DNA of 64,000 bases from Escherichia coli. GTDB taxonomy: Bacteria > Pseudomonadota > Gammaproteobacteria > Enterobacterales > Enterobacteriaceae. Position 1 is the stretch's first letter, and each line of letters begins with the position of its first letter. Location of the stretch: the NCBI RefSeq assembly GCF_044647545.1, contig NZ_CP172818.1, one strand, 5' to 3'. The position numbers are program-made. Positions 24,801 through 30,800 of this stretch are shown in pieces.

Positions 24801-27800
24801 AAAGGAAACCGGGAAATCCCTGGTTTTTCTGACAAGCAGACGCCATTATTTGTGTCTGCCTATGTTCGTTAATTCGTTCATCAGGAAATTATCTCAATGT
24901 CACGTTATAAAACAGACAATAAACAGCCACGATTTCGTTATTCAGTTCTGGCCCGCTGCGTGGCGTGGGCAAATATCTCTGTTCAGGTTCTTTTTCCACT
25001 CGCTGTCACCTTTACCCCAGTAATGGCGGCACGTGCGCAGCATGCAGTTCAGCCACGGTTGAGCATGGGAAATACTACGGTAACTGCTGATAATAACGTG
25101 GAGAAAAATGTCGCGTCGTTTGCCGCAAATGCCGGGACATTTTTAAGCAGTCAGCCAGATAGCGATGCGACACGTAACTTTATTACCGGAATGGCCACCG
25201 CTAAAGCTAACCAGGAAATACAGGAGTGGCTCGGGAAATACGGTACTGCGCGCGTCAAACTGAATGTCGATAAAGATTTCTCGCTGAAGGATTCTTCGCT
25301 GGAAATGCTTTATCCTATTTATGATACGCCGACAAATATGTTGTTCACTCAGGGGGCAATACATCGTACAGACGATCGTACTCAGTCAAATATTGGTTTT
25401 GGCTGGCGTCATTTTTCAGGAAATGACTGGATGGCGGGGGTGAATACTTTTATCGATCATGATTTATCCCGTAGTCATACCCGCATTGGTGTTGGTGCGG
25501 AATACTGGCGTGATTATTTGAAACTGAGCGCCAATGGTTATATCCGGGCTTCTGGCTGGAAAAAATCACCGGATGTTGAGGATTATCAGGAACGCCCGGC
25601 GAATGGCTGGGATATTCGTGCTGAGGGCTATTTACCTGCCTGGCCGCAGCTTGGCGCAAGCCTGATGTATGAACAGTATTATGGCGATGAAGTCGGGCTG
25701 TTTGGTAAAGATAAACGCCAGAAAGATCCACATGCGATTACCGCTGAAGTGAATTACACGCCAGTGCCTCTTACCCTGAGTGCCGGGCATAAGCAGTGCA
25801 AGAGTGGTGAGAATGACACTCGCTTTGGCCTGGAAGTTAATTATCGGATTGGCGAACCTCTGGAAAAACAACTCGATACAGACAGCATTCGCGAGCGTCG
25901 AATGCTGGCAGGCAGCCCTATGACCTGGTTGAGCGTAATAACAACATCGTTCTTGAGTACCGCAAATCTGAAGTGATTATTGCTCTGCCTGAGCGTATTG
26001 AAGGCAAGGGCGGTCAGACACTTTCCCTGGGGCTTGTGGTCAGCAAAGCAACTCACGGACTGAAAAATGTGCAATGGGAAGCGCCGTCATTACTGGCTGA
26101 AGGTGGCAAAATTACCGGTCAGGGTAGTCAGTGGCAAGTAACGCTCCCGGCTTACCGTCCAGGCAAAGACAATTATTATGCGATTTCAGCAGTTGCCTAC
26201 GATAACAAAGGTAATGCCTCGAAACATGTGCAGACAGAAGTGGTTATTACCGGAGCTGGTATGAGCGCCGATCGCACGGCGTTAACGCTTGACGGTCAGA
26301 GCCGTATTCAAATGCTTGCTAACGGTAATGAGCAAAAGCCGCTGGTGCTGTCTCTGCGCGACGCCGAGGGCCAGCCAGTCACGGGCAGAAGGGCAGATCA
26401 AGACTGAACTAACCTTCAAACCGGCTGGAAATATTGTGACTCGTTCCCTGAAATCCACTCTGTCTTTACGCACCGGAACCCACATCAGGGTGAGTTCACG
26501 CAACACCGAAGCCCTAGGGTATGTTACGACGGAACCATCAGTAGCAAGATTAGTACTACAACAAAACTCATCAGAACCAGATGAGATTGCAAACTCCACC
26601 ACCTAACGACCTAGGTAACGTGGTTGCTGCTGCTGTAAGAAGTTCTACTACACGCAGCTCGCTGGACAAATAATATGAAATATCCAATTACTCCCTCTAC
26701 CTGAATTAATTATCCGAACTAAAGCAACACAAACAAAAACCCTATCAAACAAATCTCACAAACAAAACCGAAAACAACCATACAAAAAACACTCCCCTCC
26801 CCCCCCCCTGGCCCCACCAACCACTCCTCTCTCCAACAGCACTCCTTTCCTACCAAGTCCACCACAACCCACTCACTCCACACACACAAACTCTAAAAGA
26901 GACCAAAAAAAAAACTACTATACGGTGGAACCTACTCACCGGGTAATCCTGTGAACCAGGAGAGCCACCCCAGTTCAGCGACGTTCCGCCAGACACTAAT
27001 GGGATACCGTTGTCCATTTCGGAACTAAAACCAGGGGATAACAGCGCCACGGTTTCTTCGACCCGTGCCGGATGAACGTTGTTTGCGCTCAGCTTCAGGG
27101 AAATACCCCAGTTAACGTAAAAACCGGTGGTGGCGGCACAGCTTACGGCAATCATAGACTACGGCAAAAGATGCCTTATAACAACCCCTGTGACCAGCCT
27201 CACGCCGGAACCGCCGTCATACGGCTGCGGCGTATCACGGCAATAATGTCTGGGAAGAAACAAGCGATGATGGGAAGCAGATTGCACAGTTTACGCGGCG
27301 GTGATGCGCGGAACCTATGAGATACGGCGTCGGCAGGAAATGACCACCTTCGATGCGACAGACTATAACGTTTACCGATAAGGCGATCGCAACCTTCTCT
27401 GGTATTGCAGGTCAGAACAAAATACTATCCTCATCAAACCAAACAACTATAAATTACGGTGTACTGTGCCAACCTTAACCGATCGCCTGCAGTTCAATGA
27501 TATTATGCGATCACGCTGACCGCACACAACTCGGCTTCGTTAAACCTGCAAGAATGACACTGCGACAACGATCAAAATGAGCAAAGGGCCAGGCTATGCC
27601 TTTACCTGACGGCGACCGAGATAAAAACACTAACCCTGTTCCGGGCGATCTTCATTATACACTCACGGCGCAAGTGAAGCGCATAATTCTGGGTGGAAGC
27701 CAAGATGAGCGGAAAGCAGAGTTGCAGTGCTACGATAATGCCGTGCGTGACCGAAAAAATTCATTCATGAGCAGAAAGTGATCAGAACAAGGTCAGTATA

Positions 27801-30800
27801 CAAACGAAAACCGCCAACTATATTCGTCGCGGATGATAAAAAGGCAGGTGCTTCGCTGAAAATCATATCGAATGTGATTTCATAATCTGGTGGCGATAAA
27901 TACAACGGCATAGTTGGGGGGAATGTGATGGGTCGACATATTAGGCTCCGGAAGGAGTACGGAGAAGGATTATCAATTCCTGCCGTCGAAAAATGACCGA
28001 TTTCGTGAACGGAAGAATCACGCGTACATTTAGAAAAGGCAGTGCTCCCACCGTTCACCTTCAAACCACCAGCGGGACAAAGAACCAAGGACCAAACCGC
28101 GGGGAGCCGAAAGCAAAGGGAAAAAAAAAAAAAAAAAAAAAAAAAAACAAAAGAAAAAAAAAAACAAACAAAGAGAAAACCAAAAAAACAATACCTCCTA
28201 GAGGCATATCAAAGCACAAGCCCACACAGCGGAAAGAGGCATACAGTCCTCGGTTAATTATCCACTCTTTTGGCATCTCTGAATCGGTTTGTTTACATAC
28301 CGTACCGGCAAAAGTTTCAACTGTGAGCAAATCGACTGATTTTGTTGACGGTTCGAACGTGGAGACGAAATAGATATCCGTCTTAAAATTCTTCATACAT
28401 CTGACTAAATGATGACGTCGCAGTTTGACTTCTTCATCCGGTGACTTATTCGACACTTCAATATCATATTTAAATGAATTGCCAAAAATAGGTGTCTCAG
28501 GAAAGTTGACTAATCTACACTCCGTCTTTTGCTGTTGACGTATTAAAAAAGAAGGGAAGATATTTGCGAGATCCCAATAATCACGGTGGCGGTATTCACG
28601 GGGAGAGCAGCCGAATAACTTTTTAAATTCGCGGCTGAATGACTGCTGTGAATCAAAATGCAAAGAGAGTGCAATATCAAGCATAGATTTCGCGGAGAGC
28701 CGGACAAGAATGGCGGCACGACAAAGCCTTCGTTTGCGAATGTATTCTCCCAAAGGCACATGCATGAAATTTCGGAACAGAAGCTGGATGTTGCGTCTGC
28801 TGTAGCCAGATTTCTGTGCGATATCTTCGATTGAAATAGGGTGCTCAAGATTGCACTCAATCCACTCCAGGAGCTGCTGTAGAATCTTCTGCCTGATCAT
28901 CACATACTCCGTTAATTCTTTGTCATATCGCACATTTTCGTTATGTCCTGGGCCCTAAGTGTATCAAAAACAGCAAGGCGCAAGGAAAAAGCACTGATAG
29001 CGTCTGCTTCATTGCCCCAAAAATAGAGAGATTTCTGCCCTCCATTATTAATGAATTTTTTGCATAAGTGATATCAAAATCCACATACTAATTTGAGGTT
29101 ACGTTTTAACGTAGACTCATTGCTCATACCTAATGGAGGGACTGACAGTGGAATTTTCCGTATAATCTGCTTCAGAGTATTGCAGATGCCCATCAAAAAT
29201 CGATTTCTCAGGTCATTCTGCGTTGGAATATTCAACGGGGAGTGGTCGTTATTCCGAAATCGACACATCAACAGCGTATCGAAAAAAATTTTGCTATTTG
29301 GGATTTCTCACTGACAGAGAAAGAAATGGCGCAAATTAGTTCGCTTGATTTGGGTTATGTTGGGGAATCGGTAAAACATTTTAATCCTGAGTTTGTTCGT
29401 GGTTGTCTTGCTGTAAAAATACATGATTGATATTAATCACTTATTTTACCTGAGACGACAAGAATCTTTTATCAGGGGAGTGATATTGATCTTCACTCTG
29501 TCATATCTCCGGTAATATGGCGTCAGGCTTCATTAACAGAAAGGGGGCCTGACGCCTGAAAAAGTGAACAACAGACAGTGTTCGGATTATCAATATTCAG
29601 TTTTTAACGTTGAACTGGATTCATTACTGCGTTGTTTAAGAATATCCCGCGCCGAATCTGCCATTATCATGACAGCACCTGCCAGCATCAGAGTATCTTT
29701 CAATACCAGGCGACCAGCACCGGATAAATAAGGGAAACCATGATGAGCGTCACCCAATGCGGGTACCCATGCCTCCGGGGTGGTGATTAAAAATGAGAGT
29801 GTTACCAGCGGCGTGGTAAATGCCATCAGCCCACCCAATAAACCTAACCAGCGATTGACAGGATTAGCCAAAACCAGCAGAGCAATAATCACCTCCACGA
29901 CGCCAAGACCGTTGGAAAAACCATAGGTATTATTAGCCGATTGCCATGCCCTTGCTTCTGGTTTGTATTCGCCTTCGTGAGTCAGATACTGTTTATAGTC
30001 TTCCGGGTGTTCATAAAAGAACGACATTAGTGGACTGTTTGCGACGAATGGTGTAATGCTGTCTGCCTCGTAAGGGACAAACTTTAATAACCCAATCCAC
30101 ATAAAAACAATCGCAATACTCAGACGAATCAATGTCAGGCCAATTTTATCTCCCCGACTTAACAAGTGCAGGTATTTCTCCATTGTAAACATCCTTATTT
30201 ATACAATACTGCTGTTGCGGTTGAATTATTATCAATTCGCATCGATGTGACTTTCCAGGATGAAGCATTATATTTTCTGGCCATATCAGCAATGGCATCC
30301 TCCAGAACTGTCGGTGATGCTGATACTGACGAGACGCTGATATGTTTCAGAATTATTTTATCATCTGCATTGGTGGAAAATGCCATAACGCCAGATAATA
30401 GTGTTGCAAATAAAACAGGTTTTTTAAACATATAAAATACCATCAATGAAGTGATTAAGAAGTTATATAATAACAGGGAATTAATAAGATTCTTTTCTCT
30501 GAGACGCCAGAATATTTGTTCTGGCGTCTGATTTTGAGTTTATTTGACTAATGAAAATAGATCATTGAGTGATTCGCTCATCGACGGATGAGTAAATATC
30601 TGATCGCGTAATATGCTATAAGGCAGCCCGGCATCCATCACCATTTTCACTATATTGATCATCTCGTGGGAGTCAACACACAGCAGTGATGCCCCTAATA
30701 TACATTGGGTTTTATTATCAACAATCGCTTTTAATACCCCACGGGTATCGTTCATCACTCTGGCGCGCGGAATTGCAGCTACAGGCAATGTCACCACCTG

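Follow-up and report, generated by a model that had tools for sequence, protein, structure and literature searches.

What stands in place of the distal part of fdeC (eaeH) in this stretch of Escherichia coli DNA? The 64-kb window analyzed here, which is the whole stretch, carries the gene order argF/CP4-6–paoABCD–ecp–fdeC(eaeH)–ykgA–rcl–bet–yah–prp, and at fdeC it reaches a locus at which E. coli lineages are known to differ. FdeC is a surface adhesin built from Ig-like repeats, and its gene is whole in most E. coli and truncated in K-12, which retains only the N-terminal portion (PMC3324786). In the K-12 allele, eaeH is cut by IS3 and the remainder of the gene is deleted; in most other E. coli lineages, intact fdeC extends over 4.25 kb. 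An initial annotation of the window had described a degenerate IS3-like block at 26400–28200 and had judged it to be an artefact, neither a new element nor the outcome of natural insertion sequence decay.

We find no real genomic feature in the block: it belongs neither to IS3 nor to natural pseudogenes, and it represents neither a working fdeC nor the K-12 allele. It is made up from two templates, it fills the very interval over which the K-12 and intact-fdeC alleles differ in structure, it has lost particular bases and hops between repeats, and further stretches of the same window are corrupted as well. Since the damage matches the polymorphic interval, the block is best understood as the product of a conflict between two templates, and this is our central result. 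Taking all such explanations together, the block is almost certainly a non-biological artefact. The earlier judgement therefore stands, and it is now backed by flanks of zero divergence, base-specific deletion, the coincidence with a polymorphism and the corruption found elsewhere.

How close is this coincidence? The damaged interval is the interval without homology between the K-12 and intact-fdeC alleles, with offsets of no more than 3 nt at its left end and 15 nt at its right. For direct comparison, we used the intact fdeC of CFSAN061771 (locus L001, to which all L001 coordinates refer). The window's first defect, at 25773, is the loss of 3 nt, by which CTCTT-CTG-ACCCTGAG has become CTCTT-ACCC-TGAG; the K-12 junction at this point reads CTCTT/ACCC(AGC...). 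Homology to K-12 stops at 25776, the IS3 insertion point (roughly L001 2290), and restarts at 28240. Past the K-12 break, fdeC continues nearly identical for 683 nt more: identity over the 24346–26459 alignment is 99.4%, all five of its indels fall within 25773–26459, and FdeC residues 269–526 are spread over three frames. Clean sequence comes back abruptly at 28225, inside a convergent gene for a ykgA-like helix-turn-helix (HTH) regulator, at 99.9% identity to the intact-fdeC lineage, and 15 nt specific to the non-K-12 lineage precede the return of K-12 homology. The damage extends beyond the limits given in the initial annotation, with sparse indels from 25773 and a severe part from 26460 to 28224.

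From left to right the locus is composed as follows, where LCS is the longest common subsequence with the template, as a percentage of the window segment, and z compares it with control slices of other E. coli DNA (60 slices for the 26460–26640 comparison).

24897–25772 (+ strand): intact 5′ part of fdeC (eaeH), 100% identical to the FDAARGOS_497/CFSAN061771 lineage, with its start codon aligned to L001 1398 and zero differences before 25773.
25773–25776 (+ strand): left damage edge, CTCTT-ACCC-TGAG, consisting of the K-12 eaeH/IS3 junction with the CTG of fdeC skipped, followed by fdeC again.
25773–26459 (+ strand): fdeC with sparse indels, five in all (−3, −1, −3, −1, −1), which split the reading frame in three.
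26460–26640 (+ strand): noisy copy of fdeC (L001 2970–3232; LCS 89%, z = 8.2).
26640–26940 (+ strand): A/C-rich, G-poor stretch, a compressed L001 3590–4175 with nearly all G and most T lost (LCS 93%, z = 6.3).
26941–27240 (+ strand): jump back to an earlier Ig-like repeat (L001 3233–3590), 82–88% identical.
27239–27597 (+ strand): forward jump of about 1.25 kb (L001 4836–5185), 74.6% identical with many indels.
27542–27727 (+ strand): return to an fdeC segment used before (L001 4688–4886), 71%.
27667–27780 (+ strand): first IS3-like scrap, from the transposase C-terminal region (IS3 positions 981–1080), 76.5% identical.
27776–28033 (+ strand): fdeC piece (L001 5233–5518), 75.7% identical, with a blend of fdeC and IS3 at 27861–27895.
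28035–28224 (+ strand): A-rich collapse that replaces the 3′ end of fdeC, the spacer and the terminal 182 nt of the ykgA-like HTH gene (L001 5519–5953; LCS 95%, z = 2.8).
28225–28900 (− strand): remainder of the ykgA-like HTH regulator gene, 99.9% identical to the FDAARGOS_497 lineage, with K-12 homology from 28240.

What is the block made of? When searched against 5426 complete E. coli genomes, the set used for the E. coli genome comparisons below, its best matches are to fdeC and not to IS3 (77.5% identity over 59% of the block, with 1634 nt of query set against 2609 nt of fdeC). This search was a sensitive one, and it returned no genome that covers at least 80% of the block. In all, 1765 nt in the window replace 2984 nt of template (L001 2970–5953), and about 90% of the block comes from the 3′ part of fdeC, the fdeC–ykgA spacer and the ykgA-like gene's terminal part. 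The path through fdeC runs from 2970–3232 to 3590–4175, back to 3233–3590, on to 4836–5185, back to 4688–4886 and then through 5217–5953. Switches that we inspected in the alignment, such as that from 4175 back to 3233, lie at homologous Ig-like repeat motifs. L001 4175–4836, some 660 nt, is wholly missing from the window, and an exact 22-mer of L001 5217–5238 is present at 27656–27677. A simple collinear alignment to intact fdeC was rejected because the path loops between repeats. The collinear LCS over the severe part is higher above controls with the fdeC interval (z = 9.9) than with the K-12 IS3 interval (z = 5.6).

At the protein level, FdeC is found only as fragments in shifting frames, one of which, at 26941–27240, corresponds to residues 618–726 at 40% amino-acid identity. 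Instead of a single open reading frame (ORF) of about 1417 codons, the frame is broken from 25918 on, leaving ORFs of 359 and 144 amino acids followed by fragments; instead of homology that runs collinearly over the N-terminal barrel and every Ig-like domain, the N-terminal part is identical and the distal part scrambled and compressed. On the opposite strand, a 290-amino-acid ORF at 28061–28933 is the ykgA-like HTH gene extended spuriously through the complement of the poly-A tract and does not represent a real longer protein.

The quality of the copy changes in a directional manner. From left to right, identity declines from 99.4% to about 89%, collapses, returns to 82–88%, falls to about 75%, ends in a poly-A collapse and recovers abruptly at 28225, so that the worst sequence of the block directly abuts the right-hand anchor. 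Two further candidates were rejected. A foreign insertion does not fit a block that is mostly fdeC with a little IS3 and for which neither E. coli genomes nor, over 27640–27920, plasmids yielded another source. A non-coding RNA reading was discarded after a search of 25500–29000 against Rfam gave no match at E values up to 0.1.

The composition of the block is as unusual as its order. G makes up 21 of the 301 nt (7%) at 26640–26940, beside 40% A, 36% C and 17% T. Over the whole window, 300-nt windows average 25.3% G (standard deviation 4.6), and the minimum outside the block is 13.7%. This G-poor stretch also contains the homopolymers C10 (26799–26808) and A10 (26905–26914). Farther right, 28035–28224 is 55% A and 6% T, and within it a 130-nt T-free stretch (28062–28191) holds A27 (28121–28147) followed by A11 (28154–28164). 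The initial annotation had recorded a stretch almost without G, a run of ten C and a 30-nt run of A from inspection of the sequence; the first two are as described, and the A run is present with a length of 27 nt.

Were these bases replaced or removed? At 26640–26940, the shares of template bases retained are 0.79 for A, 0.68 for C, 0.40 for T and 0.11 for G; at 28035–28224, they are 0.76 for A, 0.37 for C, 0.35 for G and 0.10 for T. Over the whole block, base counts relative to the template are 0.78 (A), 0.64 (C), 0.52 (T) and 0.43 (G). As the G-poor stretch has half its template's length and 93% of it is a subsequence of that template, G was deleted rather than replaced, which excludes deaminase-like substitution of G by A or C. 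Nor is the poly-A tract a transcript tail, since beyond the A run the spacer and the ykgA-like gene are still tracked with T dropped. We know of no mutational process that deletes whole classes of bases.

How much of IS3 does the block contain? Aligned directly to the element, it is similar only at 27667–27780 and 27861–27895, two scraps of 114 and 35 nt that together make up about 150 of some 1765 nt and both lie inside fdeC sequence. The first is bounded by microhomologies with fdeC (GGCGCAAgTGA and AAGTGA), and a segment at about 27667–27781 independently matches IS3 copies on 772 plasmids. The second is 85.7% identical to IS3 1138–1169 and is a base-by-base blend of fdeC and IS3. Of the 1258-bp element, only 981–1080 and 1138–1169 are matched, and 88% is missing. 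The ends of the K-12 IS3 (IRL and IRR) gave no match anywhere in the window with up to three mismatches, and the block has no terminal inverted repeat pair. The insE/insF (orfA/orfB) ORFs are absent, the longest ORFs of the block being 101–126 amino acids, and tblastn with IS3 transposase picked up no more than two remnants, with 25 and 24 residues aligned (E = 0.007). In the absence of element ends there is no target-site duplication, and a 3-nt deletion occupies the K-12 insertion point. The left junction of the K-12 eaeH::IS3 allele is present at 25773, but fdeC follows it, not IS3. We also considered a whole IS3 backbone hidden as a subsequence, such as polishing of a K-12 backbone might leave behind, for which the excess over controls is small (958 versus 911) and, in our judgement, about what the two scraps would add by themselves; the scraps probably account for the LCS excess with the IS3 interval noted above.

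These results divide the earlier description of a degenerate IS3-like block. Its patchy IS3 similarity (76–86% in two patches) and its lack of intact insE/insF are borne out, the latter by both the ORF list and tblastn, but its identity as IS3 is largely lost to fdeC, spacer and ykgA-like sequence. Likewise, IS3 is expected here only under the K-12 layout, and locally the haplotype is that of the intact-fdeC lineage.

That haplotype is remarkably undisturbed on both sides of the block. Over 13368–25772, the window has 0 differences from the FDAARGOS_497 lineage, and over the 18.7 kb of 28225–46900 it has three private differences and one K-12 allele; at the approximately 1090 sites in 13–47 kb that separate K-12 from the FDAARGOS_497 lineage, it follows the latter at all but two. 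The initial annotation had described the flanks as nearly identical to the reference, which is borne out. Flanks that are 100% identical to living lineages leave no time for natural decay. In a pseudogene decaying naturally, the divergence of the block would be in step with that of its flanks; instead, its pieces differ from fdeC by 12–35%, and it is 40% shorter.

In the right flank, a private T>G and a 2-nt deletion at 36934–36935 lie exactly at the ykgH breakpoint between the K-12 and other-lineage structures and frameshift a small hypothetical gene.

Positions 1–13379 are identical to K-12 except for the IS1 copy. The switch from K-12 to the FDAARGOS_497 lineage occurs at 13368–13380, exactly where homology to the latter begins, this lineage having thrW, an integrase remnant and yagU and lacking CP4-6 and paoABCD. 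Deletion junctions of 6.3 kb at 24346 and of 586 nt at 29162 sit at the K-12 positions and are flanked by non-K-12 single-nucleotide polymorphisms (SNPs). Among the genomes searched, the best contiguous match over the 24346 junction reaches 96.5%, and the top-ranked matches over 29162 are split, with an extra 586 nt. The 98-nt deletion of K-12 (29211–29301) is not present in the window. An exact search for a 35-mer of the fdeC/IS3 joint found no copy in the JGI metagenome collection or in GTDB species-representative genomes, and a 104-mer of the clean non-K-12 haplotype was absent from the GTDB representative genomes searched.

The IS1 copy, at 1187–1884, differs at 30 positions from the K-12 IS1 at the same locus and, with both frames intact, is another natural variant.

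Is the fdeC block the only corrupted part of the window? The first 25.7 kb are clean, but past 46.9 kb random indels number about 55 within 17 kb and throw eleven genes out of frame (yahD, yahE, fdrA, yahG, yahI, yahJ, yahL, yahM, prpB, prpC and prpD). Alleles revert to K-12 between 46880 and 46978. From 47038, noisy stretches with an indel every 150–250 nt (47.0–54.2, 55.8–57.3 and 61.2–64.0 kb) are separated by clean K-12 stretches (54222–55655 and 57264–60977). The segment 46880–54222, for which the best match in the genome set is 97.7%, has 41 small indels over 7.6 kb, of which 27 are deletions and 14 are insertions; of the 41 indels in 46.8–54.4 kb, 16 are in homopolymer context, and their distribution is patchy. 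At 55844–57264, deletions of 1–4 nt on an otherwise K-12 haplotype break yahL and yahM. Substitutions relative to K-12 at 52000–54100 and 60977–62700 are spaced in multiples of three and in part match alleles of other lineages; these segments are a natural third haplotype with random indels on top. K-12 and FDAARGOS_497-lineage alleles are mixed about 50:50 at 52–54 kb and 61–62 kb. Finally, the prpB–prpC spacer holds C17 (61235–61251) and A11 (61277–61287) where the FDAARGOS_497 lineage has C7 and A3; this spacer is 398 nt longer in K-12 than in the other lineage, and the prpB frame runs on by 10 nt.

If two templates were in conflict, what combined them? The likeliest producer, in our view, is a left-to-right (autoregressive) sequence generator that recited and mixed memorized E. 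coli genomes. We infer the nature of the producer from its product and consider the chances of this reading to be evenly balanced. Such a producer would have followed the intact-fdeC lineage up to the K-12 IS3 insertion point, taken the K-12 junction briefly and then resumed fdeC while losing register. It may next have slipped between Ig-like repeat units and dropped specific bases, first G and then T, with IS3 scraps spliced in at short chance homologies, before collapsing to A/C-only and poly-A sequence and snapping back to perfect sequence where both alleles are homologous again. The directional decay, with the worst sequence against the right anchor, is what a left-to-right producer would be expected to leave. 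The output of genome language models is described as showing homopolymer collapse, trouble with repeats and quality that drops with distance from the seed (bioRxiv 10.64898/2026.01.17.700093). Low-complexity collapse, repeat trouble and falling quality are all seen here, but they are not unique to genome models.

Several observations count against a generator. It would need to produce without error 33 kb of one non-reference lineage, whose 104-mer is, as noted above, not among the GTDB representatives searched, together with 13 kb of K-12, and such recitation of two lineages requires memorization at the level of strains. Structural differences are handled according to size: the window makes good the 98-nt deletion of K-12 and drops its extra segments of 172 and 398 nt, but it does not bring back the segments of 586 nt and 6.3 kb that K-12 lacks, a pattern that suits the polishing of reads on a K-12 backbone better than it suits a generator. 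The reported collapses of language models are multi-kilobase and come after hundreds of kilobases, unlike the 10–130 nt seen here. Moreover, we know of no documented generator behavior with base-specific dropout.

An alternative is an artefact of assembly or consensus, in which a K-12 backbone, used to guide assembly or for polishing, or a K-12 contaminant was combined with reads from an intact-fdeC strain to give a hybrid wherever the two lack homology; stretches without coverage would have kept K-12, and thinly covered stretches would have kept random indels. We regard this as possible but less probable than not. When reads of one strain are polished on the backbone of another, uncovered backbone is kept, SNPs are converted, large insertions are not, and junk appears at big structural differences. 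In line with this expectation, the window is exactly K-12 over 1–13367, a region without homologous DNA in the other lineage, this K-12 stretch carries an exchanged IS1 copy, the 24346 and 29162 junctions combine K-12 structure with non-K-12 SNPs, and only small structural differences are "repaired." The roughly 50:50 allele mixing at 52–54 and 61–62 kb and the K-12 junction signature at 25773 can be read the same way. However, reads from a single template would not be expected to yield fdeC-like pieces that are just 65–88% identical and that hop and pass repeatedly over the same sequence; A27, C17, C10 and the G and T dropouts are atypical of consensus output; and homopolymer context accounts for only 16 of the 41 indels. 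The poorest sequence lies beside the right anchor, the opposite of what is expected if reads are anchored there, and perfect stretches of 3 kb are interspersed with others in which an indel comes every 150–250 nt. On balance, a generator is slightly favored over a mixed-template consensus.

It is less likely, and in our view unlikely, that a real and possibly chimeric E. coli sequence was corrupted deliberately or by a program, through base deletion, segment shuffling and homopolymer padding. Deletion of specific bases at changing rates is easily programmed, and the damage does come in discrete patches within otherwise perfect sequence, but the segments are not exact subsequences of their template (LCS 86–95%, not 100%). 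Blind noise would also yield neither microhomology joints with IS3 nor the K-12 junction at the left edge, and the corruption follows natural structural polymorphisms.

Could the block be real? Biological readings, even when pooled, seem very improbable. The foremost of them, that distal fdeC was hypermutated or rearranged in vivo together with IS3 fragments by error-prone repair, template switching or targeted mutagenesis, is scarcely credible. The switches among fdeC repeats and between fdeC and IS3 are at short homologies, as in template switching, and fdeC encodes a repeat-built surface adhesin (PMC3324786). Against this, the flanks show zero divergence beside a block that differs by more than 25% and has lost 40% of its length, entire classes of bases are deleted and not substituted, two convergent genes have both had their 3′ ends destroyed, frameshifts affect eleven unrelated genes of the same window, and nothing similar occurs in 5426 genomes. 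More specifically, we give hardly any weight to a living strain whose distal fdeC was rewritten in vivo by template switching among Ig-like repeats and IS3 with base-selective loss; were it true, an adhesin gene would be undergoing targeted scrambling of a novel kind. A naturally decayed IS3 at the K-12 position, to which two collinear IS3-like patches on the same strand as the IS3 of K-12 might seem to point, is refuted by the lack of terminal inverted repeats and transposase ORFs, by a similarity of only about 150 of 1258 nt and by patches that lie about 3 kb further along fdeC than the K-12 insertion point (25776), leaving it a negligible chance.

For users of this sequence, the window should carry a quality flag: it is not a faithful natural genome, and features such as the block at fdeC, the yah and prp genes with their frameshifts and the runs of single bases should not be taken for biology. 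More generally, corruption that is bounded exactly by a known structural polymorphism, beside flanks of zero divergence, is a useful diagnostic sign that points to template conflict and not to evolution. If independent reads were to confirm the sequence, it would be a very unusual case of gene scrambling.

How does the block compare with systems that are already known? It shares with natural strand-biased hypermutation, such as cytosine deamination or the adenine-specific mutagenesis of diversity-generating retroelements, a depletion of bases on one strand in the gene for a repeat-built surface protein. However, deamination and retroelement mutagenesis substitute bases and keep length, whereas here bases are deleted and length is halved; these deletions do not fit a diversity-generating retroelement target, although no search was made for a reverse transcriptase or a template repeat. 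The block resembles the K-12 eaeH::IS3 locus in its chromosomal position, its left junction (CTCTT/ACCC), the orientation of its IS3 scraps and the deletion junctions at 24346 and 29162, and differs from it in lacking IS3 ends and ORFs, in the continuation of fdeC for 683 nt and in carrying SNPs of a non-K-12 lineage. From intact fdeC, which encodes an inverse autotransporter adhesin of 1417 amino acids in FDAARGOS_497/CFSAN061771, it has the first 875 nt of the 5′ part unchanged, flanks at 99.9–100% identity and the source of its pieces, but 2984 nt have become 1765 nt in scrambled order at 65–88% identity, with G and T dropouts and no open frame.

Two further likenesses are to products of computation. 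As in polishing artefacts, what would be backbone is kept where coverage would be nil, SNPs are converted, large insertions are not, and junk lies at large structural differences; unlike them, the parts that would derive from reads are of low identity, hop, contain expanded homopolymers and decay in one direction. With the failures of genome language models, the block has in common a collapse into homopolymers and two-letter sequence, register that is lost within a gene made of repeats, a window that starts clean and ends noisy, and an abrupt, perfect recovery.

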